Positions 1-44,700 of a DNA stretch of 64,000 bases are shown one piece after another. A model generated the notes under the pieces. That model ran no database searches and was not told the DNA's origin. It worked only from the letters and a program-made list of their open reading frames with translations. A program made the position numbers and the translations under genes. How positions within the stretch are numbered: the first letter of the stretch is position 1; the number at the start of each line of letters is the position of its first letter. The stretch comes from Escherichia coli (GTDB taxonomy: Bacteria > Pseudomonadota > Gammaproteobacteria > Enterobacterales > Enterobacteriaceae): NCBI RefSeq assembly GCF_041886205.1, contig NZ_CP169029.1. The stretch is one strand, 5' to 3'.

Positions 1-2043
1 CATACAACCGATGCTGCAGGCTCAGCTCGTGCCGCCAGCACGTCAGCCGGACAGGCTGCATCATCTGCTCAGTCAGCATCTTCCAGCGCAGGAACGGCAT
101 CAACAAAGGCCAGTGAAGCATCGAAAAGTGCTGCTGCTGCAGAGTCCTCAAAAAGCGCGGCGGCCACCAGTGCCGCTGCGGCGAAAACGTCAGAAACGAA
201 TGCGGCAGCGTCACAACAATCAGCAGCCACTTCTGCATCCGCCGCGACCACGAAGGCGTCAGAAGCTGCCACCTCAGCCCGGGATGCGGCGGCCTCAAAA
301 GAGGCGGCAAAATCATCAGAAACGAGCGCAGCCTCGAGCGCCAGTAGTGCAGCCTCCTCGGCAACAGCGGCAGGAAATTCCGCGAAGGCGGCAAAAACGT
401 CCGAGACGAACGCTAAGTCTTCTGAGACGGCAGCAGCACAGAGTGCCTCCGCAGCAGCAGACTCAAAAACAGCGGCTGCCTCATCTGCCAGCGCCGCGTC
501 AACAAATGCCGGGCAGGCCTCAGCCAGTGCCACCGCCGCCGGAAAATCGGCAGAAAGTGCTGCATCGTCCGCTTCAACAGCCACAACGAAGGCTGGCGAA
601 GCCGCTGTACAGGCCAGCGCAGCAGCGAGGTCTGCTTCCGCAGCGAAGACATCCGAGACGAACGCGAAAGCGTCGGAAACCAGCGCAGAATCCTCAAAAA
701 CGGCTGCCGCATCGTCCGCCAGTTCGGCGGCGTCATCGGCATCATCGGCGTCTGCTTCAAAAGATGAGGCGACCAGACAGGCGTCAGCAGCAAAGGGCAG
801 CGCCACGACGGCATCCACGAAGGCGACAGAGGCAGCTGGCAGTGCGACGGCGGCAGCTCAGAGCAAAAGTACGGCGGAATCCGCGGCAACGCGCGCCGAG
901 ACAGCGGCAAAACGGGCAGAGGATATTGCATCCGCCGTGGTGCTTGAGGATGCGAGCACGACGAAAAAGGGGATAACCATGCCACAGGCGAGTTCTGTTG
1001 TTTCAATTACGTTGATTGGTGGTGCGGGATTTAACGTGGGGTCACCTCAACAGGCAGGTATATCTGAACTTGTTTTGCGTGCAGGTAATGGTAATCCGAA
1101 GGGGATTACTGGTGCTTTATGGCAGCGCACATCGACAGGGTTTACAAATTTTGCCTGGGTCAATACATCTGGTGATACTTACGATATTTACGTTGCAATC
1201 GGAAATTATGCGACTGGTGTAAATATTCAATGGGATTATACCAGTAATGCCAGCGTGACGATTCATACGTCACCAGCATATTCTGCTAATAAGCCGGAAG
1301 GGTTAACGGACGGTACAGTTTATTCACTCTATACGCCATCAGAGCAGTTTTATCCGCCTGGCGCACCAATCCCGTGGCCATCAGATACCGTTCCGTCTGG
1401 CTATGCCCTGATGCAGGGGCAGACTTTTGACAAATCTGCATACCCGAAACTTGCAGCCGCTTATCCGTCAGGCGTGATCCCTGATATGCGTGGCTGGACG
1501 ATTAAGGGCAAACCCGCCAGTGGTCGTGCCGTATTGTCTCAGGAACAGGACGGCATTAAATCGCACACCCACAGCGCCAGCGCATCCAGTACGGATTTGG
1601 GGACGAAAAACACATCGTCGTTTGATTACGGAACCAAATCCACGAATAACACCGGGGCGCATACCCATAGTATTAGCGGGACTGCAAATAGTGCCGGTGC
1701 GCACCAACACAAGAGTTCCGGTGCATTTGGTGGCACGAACACGAGCATTTTCCCTAATGGTTATACCGCGATTTCAAATCTAAGCGCGGGGATTATGAGC
1801 ACAACAAGCGGTAGTGGCCAGACTCGTAATGCAGGGAAGACATCATCAGATGGTGCTCATACCCACTCGCTGTCCGGCACTGCTGCAAGCGCAGGCGCAC
1901 ATGCACATACTGTCGGTATTGGTGCTCATACGCACTCCGTTGCGATTGGTTCACATGGACACACCATCACCGTTAACGCTGCTGGTAACGCGGAAAACAC
2001 CGTCAAAAACATCGCATTTAACTATATTGTGAGGCTTGCATAA
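1..2043 (+). CDS. stfQ: Side tail fibre protein, 5'-partial (continues upstream of window)
   Basis: Frame 1 is open from base 1 to the TAA at 2041-2043; Ala/Ser/Thr-rich repeats (AKTSETNA-like) then His-rich HTHS/AHxH C-terminal motifs typical of lambdoid Stf; the ORF track 937..2043 is the C-terminal part of this frame. Confidence 0.85.
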
Positions 2044-2618
2044 TGGCATTCAGAATGAGTGAACAACCACAGACCATAAAAATTTATAATCTGCTGGCCG
2101 GAACTAATGAATTTATTGGTGAAGGTGACGCATATATTCCGCCTCATACAGGTCTGCCAGCAAACAGTACCGATATTGCACCGCCAGATATTCCGGCAGG
2201 CTTCGTGGCTGTTTTCAACAGTGATGAGGCATCGTGGCATCTCGTTGAAGATCATCGGGGAAAAACCGTCTATGACGTGGCTTCCGGCGACGCGTTATTT
2301 ATTTCTGAACTCGGTCCGTTACCGGAAAATGTTACCTGGTTATCGCCGGAAGGGGAGTTTCAGAAGTGGAACGGCACAGCCTGGGTGAAGGATACGGAAG
2401 CAGAAAAACTGTTCCGGATCCGGGAGGCGGAAGAAACAAAAAACAACCTGATGCAGGTAGCCAGTGAGCATATTGCGCCGCTTCAGGATGCTGCAGATCT
2501 GGAAATTGCAACGGAGGAAGAAATCTCGTTGCTGGAAGCATGGAAAAAGTATCGGGTATTGCTGAACCGTGTTGATACGTCAACTGCACAGGATATTGAA
2601 TGGCCAGCACTGCCGTAG
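2043..2618 (+). CDS. tfaQ: Tail fibre assembly protein (191 aa)
   Basis: ATG overlaps the stf stop (TAATG); protein [16 protein letters not shown]... matches the Tfa family. Confidence 0.9.
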
Positions 2619-2715
2619 GGTAAAACATATAAATTCTATAATTAGATGTATCTTTCCATTTACGGCAAGGAAGGGGGCTTGGAACACGTAAAGCATCTCA
2701 CACCGAGATTATTTT

Positions 2716-3306
2716 TTATATGTCAGGTGTCTGAAGTTTTGCTTTGGCTCTTAAAATGGTTTGCCGCGAGGTTTTGAATTCCCGGGCAATGGCACTTATA
2801 CTTACACCTGACTTAATTCGTTCGAATACCACCTGTTTCTGTTCTTCATTTAACACAGGTGGTCGACCAAAACGTTTCCCTGCGCCGCGGGCTCTTACTA
2901 TCCCGGAATGAGTGCGTTCAAGTAAAAGGTCTCGTTCAAATTCAGCGACTGCTGAAATTACTTGCATCATCATTTTTCCTGTTGGACTGGTCAGGTCAAT
3001 GCCACCCAATGCTAAGCAATGCACTCTGATACCTGTTTCGGTCAGTTGTTCCACTGTTTTCCTGATATCCATTGCATTACAACCAAGGCGATCCAGTTTT
3101 GTCACAATCAATTGATCACCACATTTCAGGCGAGCAAGCAACCGGTTAAAACCAGGACGCTCACTGGTTGCTGCTGAGCCGCTAATGTGTTCTTCGATTA
3201 TTTGCTGAGGTTTGATTTTAAAACCTGCACTTTCGATTTCCCGGCGTTGATTTTCGGTGGTCTGATCCAGCGTTGATATCCGACAGTAAGCAAAAATTCG
3301 AGACAT
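2716..3306 (-). CDS. pinQ: Serine recombinase / DNA invertase (Pin/Hin/Gin family, 196 aa)
   Basis: N-terminal resolvase fold [15 protein letters not shown] with catalytic Ser context, C-terminal HTH; convergent with stf-tfa. Confidence 0.9.
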
Positions 3307-3623
3307 AGTGAGACTCTATTCGAAATTGGTGTTCATATCATAATGCATCTCAGAAAATAATTATGATTATTTTTGTGCATATTTGTATGTACACGTTCGA
3401 AAATAAACGAATGCGTATGCAACCCCGTAATTTTTGGTGAGACCCAAAATCGATTTTGTGAAAAATGGCTTTAACTTGGTTTGTTTTTCGAGTTCCGGGC
3501 GGGCTCAAGGAAGAAGAATAGTGTTGCGTGTTATTTTAACCAGATTTCAAGTTGTTTGGACGTGGAAAAGTGGAGCAAAATGTTGTTAAAGTGGAAAAAT
3601 GATAAAAAAGTAAGTTTATTATA

Positions 3624-3857
3624 TTACATTTTACCATTTAAATTTTGGTTGTCTTTAAGAACTGATATCGCTGTTTGTAATAATTCTTTGTTATCCAGCC
3701 ATGATTTTTTCTTTATGTTTCCTTCAATGTAATCAAGCAATGTTCTGGTATTAATAGGTCTTCCCTGTTTTGCTACTTCCACTACAGCATCCCCTAGGAT
3801 AATTCTTACTTCAGGAAGCTGCGCAGGGAACCACTTAAGGGTGTCTTTTGATTTCAT
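3624..3857 (-). CDS. ydfK: Small prophage protein YdfK/YnaE family (77 aa)
   Basis: ORF track 3624..3890; start placed at the internal ATG 3855-3857, which has an AAGGAA Shine-Dalgarno 8 nt upstream. Confidence 0.75.
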   Translation of the reverse strand: MKSKDTLKWFPAQLPEVRIILGDAVVEVAKQGRPINTRTLLDYIEGNIKKKSWLDNKELLQTAISVLKDNQNLNGKM

Positions 3858-4642
3858 GAAGATATTCCTTAAAATATTATTGATTTTCATTGCGATATTG
3901 TATGTCTGATTCAGGATATGTTGACTTATACATCGGTTTTGTCTGGGTTATTGGATATGCCAATCCCTAATTTTATTAGGGCATGACTAAAAATGCTGAA
4001 TATGATAAGGAGAGAAGTGATTATCAGTATGCTGTTCATATAGCCTCGAATTAGTAATGTGTTATATATGATATAGTTGACAATTTTTATCTTGGGTGTT
4101 TTTAAAGTTCGTAGATAAACATTGTCGTTTCAGGTATACAGGAATGCTAGCAGGTGGCAGCAAAAATCAGGCGGTTTATGGCGCAAGCTGAAGCGGCAAC
4201 TGCAAACTATCTTATGCAGAGACTCTACACGGATTGGGTTTAAAAGTATACATAGATAACAGTTTTTATCTGAAAAAGAAAAATATCAAGGTGATATAGC
4301 CTATATGCCTTTGATGCGGAGGAATGACTGTGATGGGAGTGATGTATCTGAATAGTTGAAAAAACGCAGACACGCCTTATGCAAGAACGTGCTGCGGTTG
4401 GCTGGTAAATTTTTCGATAGTGTGAGTATTGAATGATTTCCAGCCGTTCTTGATTTTACGCATAAATCCATGAAAAAACTACTTATCTGTTGGGGAGTTT
4501 TTTTGGGGCATATATGGGACAGAAATAGGCCCCAGATAGACACTGAGATCGAACTTAGGATGCTTTTTAAAAAATGCAACTATCTGAAAAAACCTAGAAA
4601 ACGCCAAGGAAACCACAGGATGGGAAAAAACACCTGTGAATT

Positions 4643-5926
4643 ATGGATTTCCAGTTATATTCGCTCGGCGCAGCGTTAGTGTTTCATGAAATATTTTTTC
4701 CTGAATCATCAACGGCAATGGCGTTAATTCTGGCAATGGGAACCTACGGTGCAGGTTATGTGGCGCGTATTGTCGGAGCATTTATTTTCGGCAAAATGGG
4801 CGACAGAATAGGGCGTAAAAAAGTGCTCTTTATTACCATCACCATGATGGGGATCTGTACTACCTTAATTGGTGTGCTGCCGACCTATGCACAAATTGGT
4901 GTTTTTGCACCCATCTTGCTGGTGACGCTGCGTATTATTCAGGGGTTGGGTGCAGGTGCGGAAATTTCCGGTGCCGGTACGATGCTGGCGGAATATGCGC
5001 CAAAAGGTAAGCGCGGAATTATCTCCTCATTTGTGGCTATGGGAACTAACTGCGGAACCTTGAGCGCAACGGCAATCTGGGCCTTTATGTTCTTCATTCT
5101 CAGTAAAGAGGAACTGCTGGCGTGGGGATGGCGTATACCGTTCCTGGCGAGCGTTGTCGTGATGGTCTTTGCTATCTCGTTACGTATGAATCTGAAAGAA
5201 AGCCCGGTCTTTGAGAAGGTTAATGACAGCAACCAACCGACAGCAAAACCTGCACCTGCTGGTAGCATGTTCCAGAGCAAATCCTTCTGGCTGGCAACAG
5301 GGCTGCGTTTTGGTCAGGCGGGTAACTCCGGGTTAATTCAGACTTTCCTTGCAGGCTATTTAGTGCAGACGTTATTGTTTAACAAAGCAATTCCAACAGA
5401 TGCATTGATGATTAGTTCGATTCTCGGCTTTATGACCATTCCGTTCCTTGGTTGGTTATCCGATAAAATTGGTCGCCGGATCCCGTATATTATTATGAAT
5501 ACCTCCGCGATTGTGCTGGCATGGCCAATGCTTTCTATCATCGTAGATAAAAGCTATGCCCCGAGCACCATTATGGTTGCACTGATTGTGATTCATAACT
5601 GTGCGGTGCTGGGATTATTTGCTCTGGAAAACATTACCATGGCAGAAATGTTCGGCTGTAAAAACCGCTTTACCCGGATGGCTATTTCTAAAGAAATTGG
5701 TGGTCTTATCGCTTCCGGTTTTGGTCCTATCCTGGCGGGTATTTTCTGCACCATGACGGAATCCTGGTATCCGATCGCCATTATGATCATGGCATATTCA
5801 GTGATTGGTTTAATCTCTGCGCTGAAAATGCCAGAGGTGAAAGACCGTGATTTAAGTGCGCTGGAAGACGCTGCGGAAGATCAACCGCGTGTTGTAAGAG
5901 CTGCGCAACCTTCCAGAAGTCTGTAA
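4643..5926 (+). CDS. ydfJ: MFS (MHS-family) transporter, apparently N-terminally truncated at the prophage junction
   Basis: 427-aa ORF with MFS signatures (GKMGDRIGRKK loop) but lacking the usual N-terminal segment; begins right after the prophage/host boundary. Confidence 0.8.
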   Translation: MDFQLYSLGAALVFHEIFFPESSTAMALILAMGTYGAGYVARIVGAFIFGKMGDRIGRKKVLFITITMMGICTTLIGVLPTYAQIGVFAPILLVTLRIIQGLGAGAEISGAGTMLAEYAPKGKRGIISSFVAMGTNCGTLSATAIWAFMFFILSKEELLAWGWRIPFLASVVVMVFAISLRMNLKESPVFEKVNDSNQPTAKPAPAGSMFQSKSFWLATGLRFGQAGNSGLIQTFLAGYLVQTLLFNKAIPTDALMISSILGFMTIPFLGWLSDKIGRRIPYIIMNTSAIVLAWPMLSIIVDKSYAPSTIMVALIVIHNCAVLGLFALENITMAEMFGCKNRFTRMAISKEIGGLIASGFGPILAGIFCTMTESWYPIAIMIMAYSVIGLISALKMPEVKDRDLSALEDAAEDQPRVVRAAQPSRSL

Positions 5927-6013
5927 ACCCTCAATCCCTTCTCTTACCGGAGAGGGGATTTTTATTCATATAACAAAACATGTAGCTTGCATATTTAAAT
6001 TTAAGGAATTGTT

Positions 6014-7474
6014 ATGGGAAATAATTTGTTATCAGCAAAAGCGACGCTCCCTGTTTATGATCGTAATAACCTAGCTCCAAGAATTGTTCATTTAGGCTTT
6101 GGTGCATTTCACCGTGCGCATCAGGGTGTGTATGCCGATATTCTTGCTACGGAACATTTCAGTGACTGGGGATATTATGAGGTCAACTTAATCGGCGGCG
6201 AACAGCAAATTGCCGATTTACAACAGCAAGATAATCTTTATACCGTTGCGGAAATGTCGGCCGATGTGTGGACGGCTCGCGTTGTTGGCGTCGTTAAAAA
6301 AGCCTTGCACGTACAGATAGATGGCTTAGAAACCGTGTTGGCAGCGATGTGTGAACCGCAAATCGCGATTGTCTCTCTGACAATCACCGAAAAAGGGTAT
6401 TTCCACTCTCCGGCGACCGGACAGTTAATGCTCGATCACCCGATGGTAGCTGCCGACGTGCAAAATCCCCACCAGCCGAAAACAGCAACAGGGGTGATTG
6501 TTGAGGCGCTGGCTCGCCGTAAAGCGGCAGGACTTCCCGCATTTACCGTCATGTCATGTGACAACATGCCAGAAAACGGTCATGTTATGCGTGACGTTGT
6601 CACTTCCTACGCACAAGCCGTTGATGTAAAACTGGCACAATGGATCGAAGATAACGTGACTTTCCCATCAACAATGGTGGACCGTATTGTGCCCGCAGTG
6701 ACAGAGGATACGCTGGCGAAAATCGAACAACTTACCGGTGTGCGCGATCCTGCGGGCGTTGCCTGTGAACCTTTCCGCCAGTGGGTAATAGAAGATAACT
6801 TTGTTGCCGGACGTCCGGAATGGGAAAAAGCGGGAGCCGAACTGGTTAGCGATGTGCTGCCTTATGAAGAGATGAAGTTGCGCATGCTCAACGGCAGTCA
6901 TTCATTCCTGGCGTATCTGGGGTATCTTGCAGGATATCAGCACATTAATGACTGTATGGAAGATGAACATTATCGTTATGCGGCGTATGGCTTGATGTTG
7001 CAGGAACAAGCGCCGACGTTGAAAGTGCAGGGCGTTGATTTGCAAGATTACGCTAACCGATTAATTGCACGCTATAGCAACCCGGCGTTACGTCATCGAA
7101 CCTGGCAGATTGCGATGGATGGTAGCCAGAAATTGCCACAGCGGATGTTGGATTCTGTTCGCTGGCATCTGGCGCATGACAGCAAGTTCGATCTGCTGGC
7201 GCTGGGCGTCGCGGGTTGGATGCGTTATGTCAGTGGTGTTGATGAACAGGGAAATCCGATAGAAATCAGTGACCCACTGTTACCTGTTATTCAGAAGGCT
7301 GTACAAAGTAGTGCCGAAGGGAAAGCGCGCGTCCAGTCATTGCTGGCGATTAAGGCGATCTTTGGTGATGATTTGCCAGACAATAGTTTGTTTACTGCAA
7401 GAGTGACGGAAACGTACTTGTCTTTATTAGCGCATGGCGCGAAAGCGACCGTGGCAAAATATTCCGTGAAGTAA
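6014..7474 (+). CDS. ydfI: Mannitol/mannonate dehydrogenase-family oxidoreductase (486 aa)
   Basis: [10 protein letters not shown] dinucleotide-binding N-terminus, long-chain mannitol dehydrogenase family; RBS present. Confidence 0.9.
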
Positions 7475-18027: not shown

Positions 18028-18348
18028 ATGTATGAGCTACTATTTCACCCCGAAGCGGAAAGCGAAATTTATGACCTCGAACCTATTATGCAAGCAAAGG
18101 TACTTAAGGGACTAGAAAAGCTGGAAGCGAAAGGGCCGGAACTCCGCTATCCAGATACAGGCATTATCCAGGATGGTTTGTTTGAGTTGCGCGTAGGAAG
18201 AAAAGACATTTCAAGAACATTTTTTGCTTACGCTAAAGGTCGAAAGATCTATATTTTAAGAACGTTTATTAAGAAGACCCCTAAGACTCCGAAGGCCGAA
18301 ATTGCTCTGGCGACGTCAAGATGGGAGGAACTGAAAGATGGCTGTTAA
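18028..18348 (+). CDS. Type II toxin, RelE/ParE superfamily (Gp49/HigB-like, 106 aa)
   Basis: ATG at 18028 preceded by AGGGGGGAAG Shine-Dalgarno; about 106 aa basic protein (MYELLFHPEAESEIYDLEP...RTFIKKTPKTPKAEIALA...); 11-nt overlap with the downstream HTH gene. Confidence 0.8.
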   Translation: MYELLFHPEAESEIYDLEPIMQAKVLKGLEKLEAKGPELRYPDTGIIQDGLFELRVGRKDISRTFFAYAKGRKIYILRTFIKKTPKTPKAEIALATSRWEELKDGC

Positions 18349-18622
18349 AGGTATCAAGTTTTCTGAAGTCAAAGCAAAAGCACTTGCCAATCCTGACGTT
18401 AAAAAGGCTTACGATGAAGCCACGCAGGAAGAAGAACTCCGTGCAGTCCTCATTGAAATGAAGAAGAGAGCCGGATTAACCAGCACCGAGATTGCAGCTC
18501 GCATGGGAGTTAGCCAACCAGCTGTCAGCCGTCTTGAGAGGAATGTATCAAGTGCCAGCCTTACAACGTTACAACGTTATGCTGCAGCTTGTGGTATGCA
18601 CATTAAGTTGTCTCTTCAATAA
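18338..18622 (+). CDS. XRE-family HTH antitoxin (HigA-like, 94 aa)
   Basis: HTH LTSTEIAARMGVSQPAVSRLERN; translationally coupled to the upstream toxin. Confidence 0.8.
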   Translation: MAVKGIKFSEVKAKALANPDVKKAYDEATQEEELRAVLIEMKKRAGLTSTEIAARMGVSQPAVSRLERNVSSASLTTLQRYAAACGMHIKLSLQ

Positions 18623-30803: not shown

Positions 30804-32606
30804 TTATTTACTCCCGTCAGCGCGTTACCCCAATTGTAGATAAAACTGTTGACATCCTCCACGCCCTGAATGACGAGGATCCTGCTACGTTCAGGCTGTC
30901 GCCTGAATCATTTCGGTGGGTTCCTGCTTCAACGGGCGGCCTGACTGCACCATCCCTCCACAGGCAAGAACGGCGTGCCCCGCCGCTAAAATGTTACGAG
31001 CGCCATTTACATCGGCGTTCGCTGTATATCCACATACCTGGCATCTGAATTTACTTTGTGACAGGCGGTTCTCTTTCGCTGTATGACCACAGTACGCGCA
31101 ACGCTGGCTTGTATACGCTGGCGGAACAGCAAGCACCTGACCGCCACGCCAGAGCTGCTTGTACTCAAGCTGGCGGCGCATTTCATACCAGCCCTGATCC
31201 AGTATCGAACGGTTTAAACCTGATTTTGCCCGGACATTGCGCCCCGGCTGGCTGACCGTACCCGCTGCTGACTTTGACATGTTGCTGACCTTCAAATCCT
31301 CAATGACTATCATTGCGTGGTTTTTGCTGACGGTCGTTGTGACTTTGTGAAGGTAGTCCCTGCGGATATTTGCGATACGGGAATGCAGTCGCTGTATTTT
31401 GCGTTTCTGCTTCTGCCAGTTGTTGCTGAATTTGACCTTGCGGCTTAACTGTCGCTGAAGTCTCGCCAGCTTCTTCTGGTTTTTCTGAAAACTGTTTACA
31501 GGCTCAAAGACTGTACCATCTGACAGCGTGGCGAGTTTAGCCACGCCAGCATCCAGCCCGATCATTGATGCTGAAGGGTGAACCGGAGTTGATACTTCAC
31601 TTTCTGTCTGAATACTGATGTGCCACTTACCGCAGGACTGGCTGACCGTGACATTTTTCACAACACCCGTGACCTGACGGCTATTCCGGTAGCGCATCCA
31701 GCCCAGTTTCGGCAGAAAAATACGGCTGTTTTCCTGATCGAGCTTAACGCCCTGCGGGTAGCGGAATGCATCATTCTGTCCCCGCTTTTTGAATCGGGGA
31801 AAAGCAGCCCGCTTCTGGAAGAAGTTTTTGTAAGCCCGCTCAAGGTCTTTCAGTGACTGTTGCAATGGCTGTGACGGGGCATCTTTAAGCCATTGCGTTT
31901 CAGTGGCATTTTTCCACTCAACCAGCCAGGAAGCCATTTTCCCGTAAGGGATGTATTTATTACCGGCCTCATGATTCTCATTCTGACGTGCCAGAGCACG
32001 ATTGAAAACGAAACGACATGCGCCTGCGAAGCGCCTCATTTCACGCTCCTGTTGACCACCGGGTCTTAACTGGAATTTAAATGCCTGTAGTCGTTTCACA
32101 GGTCAAATTATATTTTGGTCTGTGAAAAAAGAAACCGATATCCGGCGTGGAAGGCATTGTGTTTTCCTGAAGCATGTTCACATGGTCTTTGTCACCAAAT
32201 ACCGACGCCAGATTTTTGACCATGACGCGACAGAAAAACTACGCACTTACTTTTCAAATGTATGTGCTGATTTTGAAGCTGAACTGGTTGAAATGGATGG
32301 CGAACCAGATCACGTCCATTTGTTAATTAACTATCCTCCCAAACTGGCGATATCCAGTCTGATAAACAGCCTCAAAAGCGTATCGGGTAGGTTACTGCGA
32401 CGAGATCGACCAGATATTGCAGTCAGGTATTACTACAAAGGCGTTTTGTGGAGTCCTGGCTATTTTGCCAGTAGCTGCGGAGGTGCGCCAATATCCGTCA
32501 TCCGCCAATACATTGAACAACAGCAAACACCTGGTCAGGTGGAAAACCGCGCCTTATATCCCCGCCCTGAAGGACGGGGTTTTACGGCGCACCGGATAAA
32601 TTCGCC
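30804..32606. mobile_element. IS200/IS605-family insertion sequence with divergent tnpB and tnpA between tam and lsrG; ends approximate
   Basis: Y1 HuH transposase gene and TnpB gene back to back (starts 22 bp apart), occupying the whole 1.8-kb interval between tam and lsrG; imperfect hairpins at both ends. Confidence 0.8.
30891..32099 (-). CDS. tnpB: TnpB (IS605 OrfB), RuvC-like RNA-guided nuclease, 402 aa, apparently intact
   Basis: RuvC-I (IGLDAGV), RuvC-II ([13 protein letters not shown]), zinc finger (CAYCGH...[18 protein letters not shown]) all present, no internal stops. Confidence 0.9.
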
Positions 32607-32688
32607 TCACGGCATCAACCCATTGAACAGACGTTTTTTACGCGGCCCGGTCATTAAAGATTCCAGTTTCGCGACACAGGTTTTGTAG
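32122..32688 (+). CDS. tnpA: TnpA, IS200-type Y1 (HuH) transposase; C-terminal extent uncertain (ORF runs to 188 aa and overlaps the lsrG 3' end)
   Basis: HuH motif (HVHLLINY) and tyrosine-containing C-terminal region (YIEQQ); typical family members are about 140-155 aa. Confidence 0.8.
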
Positions 32689-32894
32689 TGGGGCGTGGTT
32701 TTATGGAACGCCACTGCGTCTTCATCTTTATAGGCTTCGTAGATATAAAAGCGCGAATTCACTTCCGGGTCCTGTAAGACATCGAAGCGCAAATTGCCTT
32801 CTTCCTGTACAGAGCCCAGGTGGTTCTGGCGAAAAACTTCGATAAACTCGTCAACCTTGTCTTCATGAACGTTAATTTCAACCAGTGTGACGTG
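32607..32894 (-). CDS. lsrG: (4S)-4-hydroxy-5-phosphonooxypentane-2,3-dione isomerase (96 aa)
   Basis: ABM-domain ORF starting [10 protein letters not shown]; last gene of the lsr operon. Confidence 0.9.
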
Positions 32895-32919
32895 CATGTT
32901 TCTTCTCCTTAATCCGCAG

Positions 32920-33795
32920 TTACTGTTTTTCACTCAGATAGAGTTCATATGCCCGATCAGCCGTTTCGTTATGGTGTACCACCGCCTGTACGGCTTTCAT
33001 CATCGCCACCGGATGGTCAGACTGGAAAATATTACGCCCCATATCCACACCAGAAGCGCCCTGATCGATAGCCTGCCAGCACATTTCCAGCGCCTCGCGC
33101 TCCGGTAATTTTTTACCGCCAGCAATAACAATGGGTACCGGACATCCGGCAACAATCCGTTCAAAACCTTTATCGACATAATAGGTTTTGATAATTTGCG
33201 CCCCCATTTCAGCGGCGATTCGAGTCGCGAGCGAGAAATAACGCTGATCGCGCACCATATCTTTGCCCACGCCTGTCACGGCCATGGTCGGCATTCCCAC
33301 TTTCATTCCGGCATCAACCAGCTGAATAATATTTTTGATCGACTGATGTTCATATTCGCTGCCGATATAAACCTGCGCCGCCACCGCGCAACTGTTCAGG
33401 CGCACGGCGTCATCCATCGATAACGCCACGGCTTCATTACTTAATTCCGCCAGAATAGAGTTCGCACCTGACGCCCGCAGTACCACCGGCCTATTGGTCG
33501 CAGGGGGAACTACGCTGCGCAAAATGCCGCGCGTACACATTAATACATCGGCATGTTCAAACAGCGGGGCGATATTTATATCAATGCGTTCAAGTCCGGT
33601 AGTCGGTCCCTGAAAATAACCATGGTCAAAAGCCAGCATCACGGTTTTACCCGTTTTCGGATTAAATATCCGCGATAAGCGTGACTGCATTCCCCAATCC
33701 AGCGCACCGCAACCTTTCAGGGTAAAAGGGATATTTTTTTGCGGTTGATCGGTACGAAAATCTTTACCATCTTTAATATCGTCTAAATCTGCCAT
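32920..33795 (-). CDS. lsrF: 3-hydroxy-5-phosphonooxypentane-2,4-dione thiolase, DeoC/aldolase family (291 aa)
   Basis: Class I aldolase-like sequence in conserved lsr position. Confidence 0.9.
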
Positions 33796-33821: not shown

Positions 33822-34844
33822 TCAGAAATCGTATTTGCCGATATTCTCTTTGTTGAATATCACGCGCTCCGGTAACAGTACGATGCCATTACCATCCGCT
33901 TCGTAGTCATAGCCCTGAACGCTGTTTGGCGAGACTTCAACCTGACCTACGCCCTTGATATCCAGCTTGTCGCCCGTTTTCATTGATCCTTTTTTCAATA
34001 ATGCATCCGCGACATACACTGAAATTTTGCCTTGCTGAACCACATCCCACAGGCCAAATTCTTTCACCGTGCCGCGCTCTACATACGGGCGCATCACATT
34101 TGGCGTACTGAATCCGACAATCGCAACTTTGTCATTTTTCAGGTTTTCTGCGGCTTGTGCGGCAGCGGGCAGGGCGTTGGCATCAGGGGCGATAATGGCG
34201 TCGAGATCGCTATACGCTTTTAATATTCCTTCTGCGGTTTGTAACGATTTAGTGGCATCGTTATAGCCAAACTGCGTAGTGACAATTTCCCAGCCAGGAT
34301 GCTCTTTGGCGATTTTCGCTTTCGCTTCTTTCACCCACTGGTTTTGGTCCGTAACGGTGGGGCTTGAGTAGAAAAACGCGACTTTGGCTTTGTCTTTATT
34401 CACCTGACGCGCCGCCATATCCACCAACATACCTCCCAACTGGGCGGGCGTTCCCTGATTAATGTAGTAAGAGCGGCACTCCGGTTTAGTATCAGAGTCC
34501 CAGGTCAGCACTCTCACACCACGTTGCATGGCGCGTTTCAGTGCCGGACACAAGCCATCAGGCGAAACCGCAGAAACGATAATGGCGTTATAACCCTGAT
34601 TGACGAAGTTATTAATCAACTGTACCTGACCAGAAACACTGGGTTCTGTCGGCCCGTCGTAGGTCACATCAACGCCCAGCTCTTTACCCGCTTGTTGTGC
34701 GCCGTTGCCACCACTGGTAAAAAATCCCACGCCAACCAGTTTGGGAATAAATGCAATACGCTCTGCGGCCTGCACATTCATAGAGATTGCGGCAATGCCA
34801 AGAGCGCTAAGTAAGGCGATTTTCTTAAAGCGATGAAGTGTCAT
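33822..34844 (-). CDS. lsrB: AI-2 periplasmic binding protein (340 aa)
   Basis: Signal peptide plus sugar-binding periplasmic protein fold. Confidence 0.9.
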
Positions 34845-34855
34845 GAAGATATCCT

Positions 34856-35848
34856 TTATGGCAATGGGTTATTGGCCCGACGCGCCAGCCACTCTTTAAT
34901 TTGCTGGCGATGCAGGCTAACGGAACGACCTACGACAACGACGATAAGTAGCGCACCGGAAAGGGCGCTGGACACCTGATTTGGCACTCCTGCCATTTGC
35001 AAACCTTGTTGCAAATATCCCACTAATAAAACCGCAATGGCGGTGCCGATAATGGAACCGGAACCACCATAAATATTGGCACCGCCAAGCACCACGGCGG
35101 TGATGGCGGGCATCAGAAACGACGCACCGAGATCGGAACGTGCTGAACCAAAATACGATACCAGCAGCACAGCGGCGACCGCAGACGCCAGCCCCGTCAT
35201 GGCATAGAGCGCACATAAGGTGCGGTTAACTGGAATCGCGCTATAAAGCGCCACGCGCGGGCTTTGCCCAATCAAAAACACATTACGTCCGGCATGGGTT
35301 TTATGCAGCCAGAGCCAGAAAACGAGGAGACATATCAGGAAGATAATCAGCGGAACGGGGAGCCCCAGCACATCCAGGTTAGCGAAATCTGTAAACGCCA
35401 TCGGGAATCCACCAATATCTTCGTACCCCGTCGCTCCGGCCATCCCGGAAAGCAGCAGGGCACTTCCGGCAAACAGATACAGCGTGCCAAGCGTAATCAC
35501 CAGCGGGTTAACTTTGGTATAGATAATTAATCCGGCGTTGATCAGCCCGCACAATACGCCGAGCAGTAAGGTCAGGAGTATCGCCAGCGGCATCGGCACA
35601 CCACTTTGAAACAGTACGCCCAATGCAATGGCGCAGAGGCCGATGGTCGAACCAAACGAAATATCGATCCCGCCACTGACAATCACCATCGTCAGCGGTA
35701 GGGCGACAATGCCAATGCAGATAAAGTCACTGGTGCTGAACAGCAACATATTGAGATCTAACATCCGCGGGTTAATTGCACCAAATGCGACAATCTCAAT
35801 AACGAGCAGTGCGGCAAGAGCCAGTTCCCAACCGTAGCGAATACGCAT
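34856..35848 (-). CDS. lsrD: AI-2 ABC transporter permease (330 aa)
   Basis: ABC-2 ribose-type permease ORF. Confidence 0.9.
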
Positions 35849-36876
35849 TATGCGGCCTCCCGTTTTTTACCTGACGAAGCGGGTTTAACGGATGGCGGTG
35901 GCGTCATAAAGCGGGCATATTTTTGCCGCCGCAGATTACGTTCCAGCGCACAACGCAGGCGTCCATCAAACACCAGCACCGCTAGCAGCACGAGGCCCGC
36001 GATAAAATCGTTCCACCATGCCGGAATGCGCAACAGCACCAGTACGCTATCGATCTGCGTCAGGAACCATGCGCCGAGTACCGCACCGATGATCGCACCG
36101 GAACCGCCGAGCAAACTAATGCCGCCCAGCACGCAGGCTGCAATTGCTTTCATCTCCAGCCCGGTACCGGTCTGGTTGGGGATAAAACCAATCTGCGAAG
36201 CAAACACAATCCCCGCCAGTGCCGCCATGCAGCCGTTCAACGAAAATGCCACAATGCGAATGGCTTCCGTACGAACGCCCAGTTGACGAGCTCCCTGTAA
36301 ATTATCGCCCGTGGCATAAAAACTGCGTCCAAACGCCGTCTTTGCCAGCAGCCAGGCCATAAATGCCACCAGAATTATCGTTAACTAACCAATTGCTGAA
36401 ACGCCAAGCAGCAGCGGGGCGGAGAGCTGTTTCAGTTCGGCGGGTAACCCCTCAATCCATTTACCGCCAGTCCACAGCAACATGATGCCTCTGTACAACC
36501 CTAACGAGCCAAGGGTGGCAACAATGGCAGGGATCTTTAGCCACGCGACCAGGACACCGTTGAAAAATCCCGCGAGCAAACCAAGCAGTAAAGTCGCGAC
36601 ACAGGCAACAGGTAGTGAATATCCTGCGTTCAGTAACATCCCCAACAGCACCGCGCACATTCCGGTAATCGAACCCACTGAAACATCAATATTGCGCGTA
36701 AGCATTACCAGCGTCGCGCCCATTGCCAGCAGGATCAGGATTTGCGCGCTGCTATAAACCATGGTCAGCGTTTGCACACTTAAATACTGGCGGTCGAGAA
36801 AACCGGGTAATACAAACAGCAGCACCACCGCCAGCAGTGCCGTGATTTCACGGTTGTTCTGAATAAACTTCAGCAT
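35848..36876 (-). pseudogene. lsrC: lsrC AI-2 ABC permease interrupted by an in-frame TAG stop (minus-strand codon at 36385-36387)
   Basis: Single reading frame carries the N-terminal 163 codons, then TAG, then continues in the same frame (...[17 protein letters not shown]...); the ORF track splits it into 36385..36876 and 35848..36369. Confidence 0.85.
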
Positions 36877-38395
36877 GACGCCTCCTGACGCTGACTATCG
36901 CCGAAGGCAACGCGCATAATAGTCTCGACATTAATATCGCGCCCGGTCAGTGCAGAGTGGGTAATTTCGCCCTGATGCATCACATACACACGATCTGCCA
37001 TCAGTTCGATCTCTTCCAGATCAGAGGAGATAAGCAGCACTGCCACATTCTGTGCGGCGATGCTGCGCAACAGCTGGTAGATATCATTACGGGCTGAGAC
37101 ATCCACGCCGCGCGTCGGCTCATCGACAATCAATGCTTGCGGCGAAGCTTCCAGGCATTTGGCAATGAGGATTTTTTGCTGGTTGCCACCGGATAATGTC
37201 CGTGCAGCTTGTTCCGGTTGGTTAAATTTAATATTCAGCGCCCGACGATATCGTTCCAGGGTGGCATTATCTTTCGCGGTTTTCGCCCAGAATCCACGAA
37301 GGTTATGAGTAAGGGCGCAGACGTTCCACGCCAGTGAAGCATCGAGATTCAGTCCGGATGACTGGCGATCTTCCGGCAGATAAACCAGACCGCGCAGTAA
37401 ACGTTCTCCGGTGGATAATCTATTGATCTCTTTACCATTCAGCATAATGCTTCCGCCACGCAAACTACGCAGACCATAGAGCGTCTCGGCCAGTTCTGTG
37501 CGTCCGGCTCCCACCAGCCCAGCCAGGCCCAGAATTTCTCCGGCATTGAGCGTCAGGCTGACATTCCTGAAACCTTCGCCAGTCAGATTTTCCAGTGTCA
37601 GCACCGACGTTCCGGCGGCATGTTGTGGGCGGTTACCAGGTAACTCCAGCCATAATTTTTGGCTGGCAGAGAGCGATTTTTCCCGTACCACTGGCGTGAT
37701 GGCCTGAATAATGTCGTCGGTAGACAGTTCGCTGGTTTTGCCGCTTAAGGCGATGGTTCCGTCGCGCATCACGCTAATTCGATCGGCAATCTGGCGAATT
37801 TCCGGCAGCTTATGCGAGATAAAAACAATACCCACGCCAGTAGCAAGCAGCTCTTGCAAGCGACTAAACAAGCGTTCGGTTTCCGCAGGGGTAAGCGAGG
37901 CGGTAGGTTCAGAATCCGCGAGTCGCGCATCAGCCCGCGGAGGATTTCCACCATTTGGCGATCGGCGACATCCAGCGATCCTGCCAGACTATGCAGATCA
38001 AACTGGCAGCCCAGCGCCGCCAGCAAGTTCTTCATTTTCTGCATGGAGAGCTGTTTTTTTGCCAGCCCAAACAGGATGTTTTCTTTTATCGACAGGCTTG
38101 GAAAAAGCAGCGGTTCCTGGGGAACGAGATAAATACCCAGCTGATGAGCATGAACTGGCGTTAATCTGGCGTAGTTGTTGCCCCCAATCTTCAGCGTACC
38201 GCTATCAGCAGGGGTAATACCGGCAATAATCTTCATTAACGTCGATTTACCGGCACCATTGCCGCCGAGCAGGGCGTGGACCTCCCCCTGATGCAACGTA
38301 AAATCGATGCCTTTCAGGACATTGACCCCTGAATACTGTTTATAAACCGAGCGGGCGCAAAGTAGCGGTAACGCGCGGGTATCACTCGTTTGCAT
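36870..38395 (-). pseudogene. lsrA: lsrA AI-2 ABC transporter ATPase disrupted by a frameshift near 37905-37915
   Basis: N-terminal ORF (37769..38395) has Walker [10 protein letters not shown] and runs ...RDSRIL then out of frame; the C-terminal ORF (36870..37871) continues the ABC ATPase in another frame; Walker B hhhhDE not encoded in frame. Confidence 0.85.
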
Positions 38396-38643
38396 ATTTC
38401 CCCTGTTCAGTTTTGCAGGTGAGTTTTGAACAAATGTATTTCTGCTTTTAATTTGTTCATAACCTTAGGTGGACATTGCACATATTTCCGACGAATAGAT
38501 CACAATTTATGCTATTTTGATTCTCCCGGTTGCGTTTGTTCATACTCGTAGAGTCAAACTGTGGTTGCCATCACAGATATAAATGCGCAAGAACTGAACA
38601 ATTGCATTAAAGATTTAAATATGTTCAAAGTGAAGAATGAATT
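38396..38643. promoter_or_regulatory. Divergent lsrR / lsrACDBFG control region with a perfect inverted repeat TGAACAAAT-N15-ATTTGTTCA (38427-38459)
   Basis: Inverted repeat read directly; position between divergent lsrA and lsrR starts. Confidence 0.6.
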
Positions 38644-39597
38644 ATGACAATCAACGATTCGGTAATTTCAGAACAGGGAATGTGTGAAGAAGAACAGGTC
38701 GCGCGGATCGCGTGGTTTTACTACCACGACGGGCTGACCCAGAGTGAGATCAGCGATCGTCTCGGCCTGACCCGTTTGAAAGTGTCGCGATTACTGGAGA
38801 AAGGGCATCAATCCGGCATTATTCGCGTACAGATTAATTCTCGCTTTGAAGGCTGTCTGGAATATGAAACACAATTACGTCGTCAGTTTTCGCTGCAACA
38901 TGTCCGGGTGATCCCAGGGCTTGCGGATGCTGATGTCGGCGGGCGACTAGGGATAGGCGCGGCGCATATGTTGATGAGTTTACTTCAACCACAACAGATG
39001 CTGGCGATTGGTTTTGGCGAGGCAACCATGAATACGCTGCAACGCTTAAGTGGTTTTATTTCGTCACAGCAAATTCGCCTGGTCACGCTCTCCGGTGGAG
39101 TCGGTTCTTATATGACGGGTATCGGGCAGCTTAACGCGGCGTGCAGTGTGAATATTATTCCGGCTCCGTTGCGGGCATCCTCCGCTGACATTGCCCGTAC
39201 GCTAAAAAATGAAAATTGCGTCAAAGATGTTCTGCTAGCCGCGCAAGCAGCGGATGTGGCGATTGTCGGCATTGGTGCTGTGAGTCAACAGGACGATGCG
39301 ACAATCATTCGCTCCGGTTATATCAGCCAGGGCGAACAGTTAATGATTGGCCGAAAAGGTGCAATTGGCGACATTTTAGGCTACTTTTTTGATGCAAAAG
39401 GTGACGTTGTCACGGATATTAAAATACATAACGAACTGATTGGCTTACCTTTAAGCGCGCTGAAGACCATACCCGTCCGGGTTGGCGTGGCAGGGGGAGA
39501 AAATAAAGCCGAAGCAATTGTCGCTGCAATGAAAGGCGGTTATATCAACGCACTGGTCACCGATCAGGACACAGCAGCGGCGATTTTACGTAGTTAA
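38644..39597 (+). CDS. lsrR: LsrR repressor of the lsr operon (SorC family, 317 aa)
   Basis: N-terminal HTH plus sugar-phosphate binding domain. Confidence 0.9.
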
Positions 39598-39675: not shown

Positions 39676-41268
39676 ATGGCTCGACTCTTTACCCCTTCAG
39701 AATCAAAGTATTACCTGATGGCGCTGGATGCAGGTACCGGAAGTATTCGGGCTGTGATATTCGACCTGGAAGGCAATCAAATAGCAGTGGGACAGGCGGA
39801 GTGGCGGCACCTGGCAGTACCGGACGTTCCTGGTTCTATGGAATTTGATCTCAACAAAAACTGGCAACTGGCGTGTGAGTGTATGCGCCAGGCGCTGCAC
39901 AACGCCGGCATAGCCCCGGAGTATATCGCTGCCGTTTCGGCATGTTCGATGCGTGAAGGCATTGTTTTATATAACAATGAAGGAACACCGATCTGGGCCT
40001 GCGCCAATGTGGATGCCAGAGCGGCGCGCGAAGTTAGCGAACTTAAAGAACTGCACAACAATACCTTTGAAAACGAAGTTTATCGCGCGACCGGACAAAC
40101 ACTGGCTTTAAGTGCCATCCCCAGATTACTTTGGCTGGCGCACCATCGTTCCGATATTTACCGTCAGGCATCAACCATCACCATGATCAGCGACTGGCTG
40201 GCCTATATGCTCAGCGGCGAACTTGCGGTGGATCCCTCTAACGCTGGCACCACGGGACTTCTTGATCTAACCATCCGTGACTGGAAACCTGCATTGCTGG
40301 ATATGGCTGGCCTGCGTGCCGATATTCTTTCTCCTGTCAAAGAAACCGGCACATTGCTGGGCGTGGTAAGTTCACAAGCGGCGGAACTCTGCGGTCTGAA
40401 GGTGGGCACTCCGGTGGTCGTTGGAGGAGGCGACGTGCAGCTTGGTTGCCTGGGGTTAGGCATTGTGCGTCCGGCACAAACCGCGGTTCTTGGCGGCACA
40501 TTCTGGCAGCAAGTTGTAAATTTAGCCGCGCCGGTGACAGACCCAGAAATGAACGTGCGCGTTAATCCTCATGTTATTCCTGGCATGGTACAAGCTGAAT
40601 CTATAAGCTTTTTTACCGGACTCACCATGCGCTGGTTCCGCGATGCTTTCTGTGCCGAAGAAAAACTGATTGCCGAACGTTTAGGCATCGACACCTATAC
40701 GCTGCTGGAAGAGATGGCCAGTCGGGTGCCGCCTGGGTCGTGGGGCGTAATGCCGATCTTCTCCGACAGAATGCGCTTTAAAACCTGGTATCACGCTGCG
40801 CCTTCCTTTATTAATTTGTCCATTGACCTGGATAAATGTAACAAAGCGACATTGTTCCGTGCGCTGGAAGAAAATGCGGCGATTGTATCAGCGTGTAATT
40901 TGCAGCAAATTGCTGATTTCTCGAATATTCATCCCACCTCGCTGGTTTTTGCTGGCGGAGGTTCAAAAGGGAAATTATGGAGTCAAATTCTCGCTGATGT
41001 CTCGGGATTACCCGTCAATATTCCGGTAGTCAAAGAAGCCACCGCATTAGGATGTGCCATTGCAGCTGGCGTCGGTGCCGGAATTTTTTCATCAATGGCA
41101 GAAACCGGAGAACGCCTGGTTCGCTGGGAACGGACGCACACACCAGACCCGGAAAAGCATGAACTTTATCAGGATTCACGCGATAAGTGGCAGGCAGTTT
41201 ATCAGGATCAGCTGGGGCTGGTTGATCATGGACTGACGACGTCGTTATGGAAAGCGCCTGGGTTATAG
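39676..41268 (+). CDS. lsrK: Autoinducer-2 kinase (FGGY carbohydrate kinase family, 530 aa)
   Basis: FGGY kinase N-terminal motif [16 protein letters not shown]. Confidence 0.9.
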
Positions 41269-41798: not shown

Positions 41799-44700
41799 AT
41801 GAATAGAATCTATCGCGTGATATGGAATTGCACCCTACAGGTATTTCAGGTCTGCTCGGAATTAACTCGCAGGGTAGGTAAAAAATCGACGGTTAATTTG
41901 CGTAAATCCTCTGGACTGACAACGAAATTCAGTAGATTGACGCTGGGTGTTTTGCTGGCACTAAGCGGTTCAGCGTCTGGTGCGAGTCTGGAAGTTGATA
42001 ATGATCAGATTACCAATATTGATACTGATGTTGCTTATGATGCCTACCTGGTTGGCTGGTATGGCACTGGAGTGCTTAATATTTTGGCTGGCGGTAATGC
42101 CTCCTTAACCACGATTACTACCAGCGTCATTGGTGGTAATGAGAACTCGAAGGGCACCGTTAATGTTTTGGGTGGCACCTGGCGATTGTATGATAGCGGA
42201 AATAATGCAAGGCCTTTAAATGTGGGTCAATCCGGAACGGGGACGCTGAATATTAAACAGAAAGGTCACGTTGATGGAGGATATTTAAGGCTAGGTTCCT
42301 CGACAGGAGGCGTCGGGACGGTCAATGTTGAGGGAGAGGACTCTGTTCTGACGACCGAATTATTCGAAATAGGGAGCTATGGCACAGGCTCATTAAATAT
42401 TACAGATAAGGGTTACGTCACGAGTTCAATAGTCGCCATTTTAGGCTATCAGGCGGGCGGTAATGGCCAGGTTGTCGTGGAAAAGGGCGGCGAGTGGCTA
42501 ATAAAAAATAACGATTCCTCAATTGAATTTCAAATTGGTAATCAAGGAACGGGGGAAGCGACTATTCGCGGGGGTGGGCTGATTACGGCTGAAAACACGA
42601 TTATCGGTGGCAATGCCACCGGTATCGGAACCCTGAATGTGCAGGATCAAGACTCTGTCATCACGGTACGCAGACTCTATAATGGATATTTCGGCAATGG
42701 CACAGTCAATATTTCCAATAATGGACTGATTAATAACAAAGAATATTCATTGGTGGGCGTTCAGGACGGTTCCCACGGTGTCATCAACGTGACCGATAAA
42801 GGGCATTGGAATTTCCTCGGAACAGGCGAAGCTTTCCGCTATATCTATATCGGTGATGCTGGCGACGGTGAACTTAATGTCTCGAGTGAAGGCAAAGTAG
42901 ATTCGGGAATTATCACTGCGGGGATGAAAGAAACAGGCACAGGCAACATTACTGTTAAGGATAAGAACTCCGTTATCACTAATCTCGGAACTAATCTTGG
43001 TTATGACGGCCACGGCGAAATGAATATCAGTAATGAGGGGCTTGTTGTCAGCAACGGAGGAAGTTCACTCGGTTATGGAGAAACCGGCGTCGGGAATGTC
43101 AGCATCACCACGGGGGGGATGTGGGAGGTCAATAAGAATGTCTATACCACCATTGGTGTTGCGGGTGTCGGAAACCTCAATATTAGCGATGGCGGTAAGT
43201 TTGTATCGCAAAATATTACTTTTTTGGGCGATAAAGCAAGCGGTATCGGCACACTGAACCTGATGGATGCGACATCATCGTTCGATACTGTGGGTATCAA
43301 TGTCGGTAATTTTGGTAGCGGTATCGTAAATGTCAGTAATGGTGCCACCCTTAATTCAACGGGCTATGGATTTATCGGAGGAAATGCCTCCGGTAAGGGG
43401 ATAGTTAATATTTCAACGGATAGTCTCTGGAATTTAAAGACATCATCTACTAACGCCCAATTGCTACAGGTCGGTGTATTAGGCACGGGTAAACTGAATA
43501 TTACCACCGGAGGTATAGTTAAAGCGCGTGATACACAGATAGCTCTCAATGACAAAAGTAAGGGCGACGTGAGGGTGGATGGGCAGAACTCTCTGCTTGA
43601 AACATTCAATATGAACGTAGGGACGACTGGCACGGGTACGTTAACCCTGACGAATAACGGCACGCTGAATGTTGAGGGTGGCGAAGTTTACTTAGGTGTT
43701 TTTGAACCTGCTGTAGGAACGCTAAACATTGGTGCTGCTCACGGTGAGGCGGCGGCAGATGCCGGGTTTATCACCAACGCGACGAAAGTAGAGTTTGGTT
43801 CTGGCGAAGGTGTTTTTGTCTTTAATCATACCAATAACAGTGATACCGGCTACCAGGTCGATATGCTGATTACGGGTGACGATAAAGACGGAAAAGTGAT
43901 ACATGATGCAGGCCATACGGTGTTCAATGCAGGGAATACTTATAGCGGTAAAACGCTGGTCAATGACGGCCTCCTGACCATTGCGTCACATACGGCAGAT
44001 GGGGTAACGGGCATGGGTTCGAGTGAAGTAACCATTGCAAGCCCCGGTACGCTCGACATTCTCGCATCAACGAACAGTGCAGGAGATTACACGCTGACCA
44101 ATGCGCTCAAAGGCGATGGCTTGATGCGAGTTCAGCTGTCATCCTCCGACAAGATGTTTGGCTTTACCCATGCAACAGGGGCTGAATTCGCCGGTGTTGC
44201 CCAACTGAAAGACAGTACCTTCACTCTGGAACGCGACAACACCGCTGCGCTTACTCACGCGATGTTGCAGTCTGACATTGAAAATACCACATCGGTAAAC
44301 GTGGGAGAGCAATCCATTGGTGGACTGGCCATGAATGGCGGTACGCTCATTTTCGATACGGATATTCCTGCTGCGACGCTTGCAGAGGGATATATCAGCG
44401 TCGATACGCTGGTTGTCGGCGCGGGTGACTACACCTGGAAAGGCCGTAACTATCAGGTAAACGGGACGGGCGACGTGCTTATCGACGTGCCTAAACCGTG
44501 GAATGATCCCATGGCGAATAACCCTCTGACGACGCTCAATTTGCTGGAACACGATGATAGCCATGTCGGCGTTCAACTGGTGAAGGCGCAAACGGTTATT
44601 GGGTCGGGTGGTTCATTAACGTTACGTGATTTACAGGGCAACGAGGTGGAAGCGGACAAAACGTTACATATTGCGCAAAACGGAACGGTGGTCGCCGAGG

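Follow-up and report, generated by a model that had tools for sequence, protein, structure and literature searches.

Is lsrA, the ATPase gene of the AI-2 transporter, truly broken in this Escherichia coli genome, or do the two reading frames over which it is spread reflect an error of sequencing or an unusual way of making a working protein? The window analysed here, 64,000 nucleotides of contig NZ_CP169029.1 (assembly GCF_041886205.1), holds the lsr locus at 32.6-41.3 kb, with lsrACDBFG on the minus strand and lsrRK on the plus strand. All eight lsr genes were found in canonical order, lsrA being the first of lsrACDBFG and divergent from lsrRK (Table 1). Genes were assigned from the list of open reading frames (ORFs), the lsrG translation and the annotation of the near-identical genome of wlxctx60.

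Table 1. Genes of the lsr locus, reading frames of lsrA, differences from wlxctx60 (nucleotide positions in the window) and NBD1 motifs (residues of LsrA).
Feature	Position	Strand	Description
lsrG (isomerase)	32607..32897	-	intact, 96 aa
lsrF (thiolase)	32920..33795	-	intact, 291 aa
lsrB (periplasmic AI-2 binding protein)	33822..34844	-	intact, 340 aa
lsrD (permease)	34856..35848	-	intact 330-aa frame; missense G144D vs wlxctx60
lsrC (permease)	35848..36876	-	amber nonsense W164; split into 163-aa and about 170-aa pieces
lsrA pseudogene (AI-2 ABC transporter ATPase)	36870..38395	-	1526 bp; 1536 bp if intact
lsrA deletion junction	37909..37911	-	one TGA copy (TCA on + strand) remains after the 10-bp loss
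N-terminal lsrA ORF, 208 aa	37769..38395	-	162 native + 46 out-of-frame residues, TGA stop
lsrA remainder in the original downstream frame	36870..37908	-	NBD1 from P167 on and the whole of NBD2
Divergent lsrA/lsrR control region	38396..38643	no strand	one lineage-specific SNP at 38526
lsrR (repressor)	38644..39597	+	intact, 317 aa
lsrK (AI-2 kinase)	39676..41268	+	intact, 530 aa
lsrD G144D	35418		missense vs wlxctx60, also in SRR14867109
lsrC W164amber	36386		nonsense vs wlxctx60, also in SRR14867109
Intergenic A>C	38526		vs wlxctx60, also in SRR14867109
Autotransporter S223G	42465		vs wlxctx60, also in SRR14867109
NBD1 Walker A, GGNGAGKS	residues 44-51		intact LsrA
NBD1 Q-loop, VPQE	residues 91-94		intact LsrA
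NBD1 signature (degenerate), LDVADRQ	residues 141-147		intact LsrA
NBD1 Walker B, ILILDE	residues 161-166		intact LsrA
NBD1 H-loop, FISH	residues 195-198		intact LsrA

In a DNA alignment with the intact lsrA of LHM10-1, 10 bp (TGATCCTCGA) are missing from the window gene and the rest of the 101 compared columns are identical. LHM10-1 served as the reference for lsrA only and was not used for the whole operon, because it carries an lsrC deletion of its own. The loss appears as a single gap with a net effect of -1, GGATTC[TGATCCTCGA]TGAACC, in a context that is neither a homopolymer nor a tandem repeat. As a 3-bp TGA repeat is found at both edges of the deletion, the breakpoint is ambiguous within 37909-37911. 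The sequence-only reading had placed a deletion of roughly 10 bp (net -1) at about 37909/37910, and the alignment gives its size as exactly 10 bp at 37909-37911. Lost are the codons of I163-L164-D165 plus the first base of E166, at which the frame shifts; the Walker B motif ILILDE (161-166), which had been read as not encoded in frame, is indeed broken at its acidic end by the removal of three of its codons and the shift of a fourth. The lsrA frame was broken by one deletion of 10 bp, bounded by two TGA triplets that lie 10 bp apart, and the flanking repeats are suggestive of replication slippage or of a microhomology-mediated deletion.

Translation from the normal start would yield 162 native residues followed by 46 nonsense residues. 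This 208-aa product keeps Walker A (44-51), the Q-loop and the degenerate signature of the first nucleotide-binding domain (NBD1), and it lacks the Walker B aspartate, the catalytic glutamate, the D-loop, the H-loop and all of NBD2. A second ORF in a different frame (36870..37871, minus strand, 333 aa) reaches the normal C-terminus of LsrA. Gene callers place a 299-aa ORF at an internal ATG of lsrA (37767-37769, native M213), which overlaps with the upstream stop as TGATG (37767-37771, minus strand). Intact LsrA has 511 aa, and an uninterrupted frame of ~511 codons over both nucleotide-binding domains is absent from the window lsrA.

Family membership was evaluated with the LsrA equivalog model NF011967 (NCBIfam, cut-off 586 bits), the competing families being the CUT2 sugar ATPases RbsA, AraG, AlsA and XylG. 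The N-terminal ORF matches model positions 1-164 with 288.9 bits (E 6e-86), the next family scoring at most 122 bits, and the C-terminal ORF matches positions 179-510 with 606.4 bits (E 3e-182), compared with only 251.6 for RbsA. The LsrA of an intact relative aligns over positions 1-510 with 952.4 bits. Model positions 165-178, the Walker B segment, are not encoded in frame in the window. The model match and the genome-wide nucleotide search described below agree with the earlier naming of the gene as lsrA, and the window copy is a pseudogene of the LsrA family and not a functional member of it.

In ABC proteins each ATP site draws its Walker A, Walker B and H-loop from one domain and its signature from the other. 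In LsrA, the Walker A lysine, Walker B motif and H-loop histidine of NBD1 are all canonical. NBD2 of LsrA has a signature that follows the consensus (LSGGNQQ) and the Walker B motif LIVDE, together with a Walker A in which arginine replaces lysine (GLVGAGRT) and LISSD at the position of the H-loop histidine. From this reading of the motifs and from general knowledge of ABC proteins, the NBD1 motifs together with the NBD2 signature would form the only fully consensus site, which is predicted to be destroyed here. Since NBD1 would provide the only consensus catalytic site, no recoding would be expected to rescue ATPase activity. A structure of LsrA or of a close CUT2-type protein was not found in the PDB, where the sequence search gave generic ABC domains only.

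To see how widely the allele occurs, window positions 36800-38450 were searched by megablast against 5426 complete E. coli genomes. Matches to lsrA/lsrC were found in 4197 genomes, with 23% having no lsrA match. Query coverage was at least 80% in 4172 genomes, and 4170 of these keep one lsrA frame; the match spans 1661 bases in relatives versus 1651 in the window and two other carriers. Hence, the two-frame layout, which the sequence-only reading had not taken for a general feature of intact homologues, is found in just two of the 4172 lsrA-bearing complete genomes. A 44-mer over the junction likewise occurs in two of the 5426, wlxctx60 (Asiatic black bear faeces, Japan) and 6EVA (human faeces, Singapore). 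Both bear the PGAP label "lsrA frameshifted" (AC6IW3_RS10180 and SE698_RS10290, respectively), and this call on an identical allele, along with the motif loss, is in line with the earlier prediction of a non-functional ATPase. The exact 208-aa product is present on 165 contigs (198 blocks of the searched collection). Their sources are NCBI isolates, E. coli N1 (EKI53597.1) among them, as well as Logan run assemblies and ENA metagenomes. In the carriers examined, identity reaches 99.7% or more across the aligned portion of a 13.6-kb reference, which points to one origin of the deletion followed by clonal inheritance. The deletion marks a natural, phylogroup-A-like clone that has been sampled worldwide.

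This distribution bears directly on the possibility that the strain has an intact 511-codon lsrA and that the deletion is an artefact of sequencing or assembly. A single window is in principle unable to exclude an error, and the related 6EVA assembly contains several frameshift calls that resemble read errors. However, the identical junction was obtained for two complete genomes by different laboratories in different countries, and the exact truncated protein recurs in Illumina-based Logan assemblies, NCBI isolates and metagenomes (the 165 contigs). Moreover, a 10-bp loss in non-repetitive, non-homopolymer DNA is atypical as a platform error, and the window agrees with the SRR14867109 assembly at all four positions that differ from wlxctx60. 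As many independent assemblies share the allele, assembly error was rejected, and the chance that an artefact lies behind it is close to negligible. A gene that is really altered could still work, either through programmed ribosomal frameshifting or because its halves are translated separately, with re-initiation of the second at the ATG of TGATG. In favour of this, the stop of the first ORF overlaps with an in-frame native ATG (M213) at which the 299-aa ORF is called, and this ORF encodes the whole of NBD2, including Walker B LIVDE and the signature LSGGNQQ. Yet with the I163-L164-D165 codons gone from the DNA and E166 disrupted, a recoded product of any kind would lack the Walker B acidic pair, and the Walker A (GAGRT) and H-loop (LISSD) of NBD2 are non-canonical. 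No obvious Shine-Dalgarno sequence was recognised by reading before the ATG, lsrC is interrupted too in this genome, and the layout is not conserved, as 4170 of the 4172 genomes keep one frame. A programmed frameshift or naturally split gene was thus rejected, since only one clone has the layout and its Walker B codons are missing; residual function of lsrA by any of these routes is highly improbable. We are confident that the lsrA of this genome is a true, vertically inherited pseudogene.

The transporter genes carry further lesions. Only four positions in 13.2 kb distinguish the window from wlxctx60, and the SRR14867109 assembly agrees with the window at all of them. One of them converts codon W164 of lsrC from TGG to TAG (36385-36387, minus strand; SNP at 36386), and the two lsrC pieces cover positions 1-163 and 171-343 of the LsrC model. 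This amber codon is also found in E. coli N1 and is absent from wlxctx60 and 6EVA, in both of which lsrC is intact. The 163-aa LsrC fragment occurs on 17 contigs, E. coli N1 included, and 15 of the 17 show the split lsrA; of the remaining two, one starts inside lsrA with the same 299-aa downstream ORF and one is too short for lsrA. From this nesting the lsrC nonsense mutation appears to have arisen inside the lsrA deletion lineage. At position 38526, relatives including those with intact lsrA have A, compared with C in the window. The SNP is located between two TGAACA...TGTTCA inverted repeats and outside the CRP-like TGTGATCTATTCG; a promoter scan gave no consensus sigma-70 match in the lsrA-lsrR intergenic region.

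The closest genomes with intact lsrA, LHM10-1 and CP52E, have both lost 234 bp of lsrC, in frame, between 16-bp direct repeats (locus coordinates about 5283-6077), which leaves a 264-aa product and no PGAP pseudogene flag on the gene. The LsrACDB transporter is, on the predicted products, hit independently in these near relatives. Among the carriers of the lsrA deletion, ERR1157030 has a 1-bp insertion in lsrB, and 6EVA has a 1-bp lsrB deletion, which is in a GGG run and possibly a read error, as well as a deletion that fuses lsrK to hipA. Unique point changes in the lsr genes of 12 carriers comprise 9 missense, 1 nonsense and 5 synonymous changes. These numbers are compatible with relaxed constraint, but relaxed selection was rejected as a proven reading of them, as the counts are too few and the same ratio is expected from very recent divergence under ordinary selection. 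At 3 SNPs in about 8.7 kb, the lsr region is no denser in SNPs than its flanks (12 in 30.8 kb). The lesions seen in individual carriers suggest that decay of the lsr operon is at an early stage in the carrier clone.

Why the lesion exists is a separate matter from what it is. The loss of lsrA could have been positively selected and not neutral, in the sense of a "social cheater" or of balancing selection, with the clone gaining from not importing AI-2. The carrier clone is widespread (human, bear, metagenome; 165 contigs), and LHM10-1 and CP52E are hit in the same transporter by their own 234-bp lsrC deletion. In the view of Brito et al., lsr is lost too rapidly for neutrality (PMC3595036), and the oxidative-stress resistance of strain 83972 fell when lsr was re-introduced (PMC12263705). 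On the other hand, the allele is rare among complete genomes (2/5426), the lsr SNP density is no higher than that of the flanks, the missense and synonymous counts have no power to separate the models, and the spread is accounted for just as well by hitch-hiking with a successful clone. Selection for the loss is therefore possible, but we lean against it. A broader proposal would have the deletion found a globally dispersed, non-importing clone at the start of decay, with parallel, selected loss of AI-2 import in one phylogroup-A-like sub-lineage and independent second hits (lsrC W164amber, the two lsrB frameshifts and the lsrK-hipA deletion). We put it forward tentatively and think it unlikely to hold in full; if true, the "signal-blind cheater" model could be tested cleanly in this clone as a natural system.

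Inactivation of lsr in natural isolates has precedents. Across 44 E. coli/Shigella genomes, Brito, Rocha, Xavier and Gordo (2013, Genome Biol Evol 5:16; PMC3595036) counted at least 8 independent lsr inactivations and 34 lsr pseudogenes, namely 26 large truncations, 6 small indels (one of 7 bp) and 2 nonsense mutations. They describe decay as fast once begun, an IS element that flanks the operon, and retention of the signal synthase (PMC3595036). Their cases concern the same operon and species and include the lesion classes of the window, small indel and nonsense. Repeated lsr inactivation of this kind being already described, the window is an ordinary further instance. A difference is that its founding lesion is identifiable, as the rest of the operon is almost intact, whereas Brito et al. 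call such identification often impossible (PMC3595036). The 10-bp NBD1 Walker B allele and the clone were not found in the main text of PMC3595036, and a literature search on lsrA frameshifts in Escherichia coli returned nothing specific to this allele. The database records of wlxctx60, 6EVA and E. coli N1 have a junction or truncated product identical to that of the window and carry an automatic flag only; lsrC is intact in wlxctx60 and 6EVA, whereas the window, E. coli N1 and SRR14867109 add lsrC W164amber.

Other natural strains reach a comparable state by different routes. The locus is missing from most phylogroup B2 strains (PMC12263705), and the B2 strain 83972 resembles the window strain in being natural and without a working LsrACDB; strains of the 83972 type take up some AI-2 independently of Lsr. 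The B2 strains lack the whole locus, whereas in the window the transporter genes are hit and lsrR, lsrK, lsrB, lsrF and lsrG are open frames. In the Bacillus cereus group, Rezzonico and Duffy (2008; PMC2561040) described a truncated lsrA in B. cereus ATCC 14579 and frameshifted lsrB and lsrD in B. weihenstephanensis. As in the window, the same transporter is affected by truncation or frameshift in natural isolates, but in another phylum, by other lesions and in independent events.

With lsrA deleted in part and lsrC interrupted at W164, the LsrACDB importer is hit twice and is predicted to be unable to work. Uptake of AI-2 independent of LsrACDB has been demonstrated (PMC12263705), and K-12 knock-outs of lsrA, lsrB, lsrC or lsrD remove extracellular AI-2 less efficiently, removal not being abolished (PMC3595036). 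AI-2 may thus enter slowly via Lsr-independent routes and be phosphorylated by LsrK, which would relieve LsrR repression. By analogy with the knock-out phenotypes in PMC3595036, the strain, in which lsrB, lsrK, lsrR, lsrF and lsrG are intact, would still sense and process AI-2 and would clear it slowly from the medium. More speculatively, the stretch of about 900 nt of untranslated lsrA could lower downstream expression by polarity, and the TGATG overlap might permit some re-initiation.

For practical work, strains of the clone (E. coli N1, wlxctx60, 6EVA) are best treated as Lsr-transport-negative in studies of AI-2 quorum sensing, chemotaxis and biofilms, and both lsrA and lsrC should be annotated as pseudogenes in this genome. 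The allele adds a dated, well-resolved case to the pattern in which E. coli keeps AI-2 production and repeatedly loses AI-2 import. As the operon is near-intact, the clone could be a natural starting point for determining the fitness effect of import loss and the order of decay.

Several features of the surrounding DNA were also recorded. Between tam and lsrG, at about 30891-32532, lies an element of the IS200/IS605 family with an intact TnpB-like gene and a truncated tnpA; IS elements beside decaying lsr operons have been reported (PMC3595036). On the other side, lsrK is adjoined by an intact autotransporter gene of the ECSE_1600 family (1806 aa, 41799-47219, plus strand), which is split into 2-3 ORFs in the related assemblies L007, L011, L012 and L013, reflecting either real decay or assembly errors at repeats. 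The adjacent hipBA genes are intact in the window (47442-49030, plus strand), and in wlxctx60 a TnAs1 element of the Tn3 family breaks hipA; an integrase island that includes a retron Ec78 system comes after it. The last 15 kb (49100-64000) contain the tricarballylate genes tcuA/tcuB, MFS transporters, an IS3 element and another autotransporter, and this segment is contiguous at a coverage of at least 80% in only 5 of the 5426 complete E. coli genomes. According to the wlxctx60 annotation, a RelE/ParE-family toxin with an HTH antitoxin is encoded between marC and marR (about 18028-18622, minus strand), and the first part of the window (about 1-5930) holds a Qin-like prophage remnant (tail fibre, tfaQ, pinQ, ydfK) and an N-terminally truncated ydfJ pseudogene.
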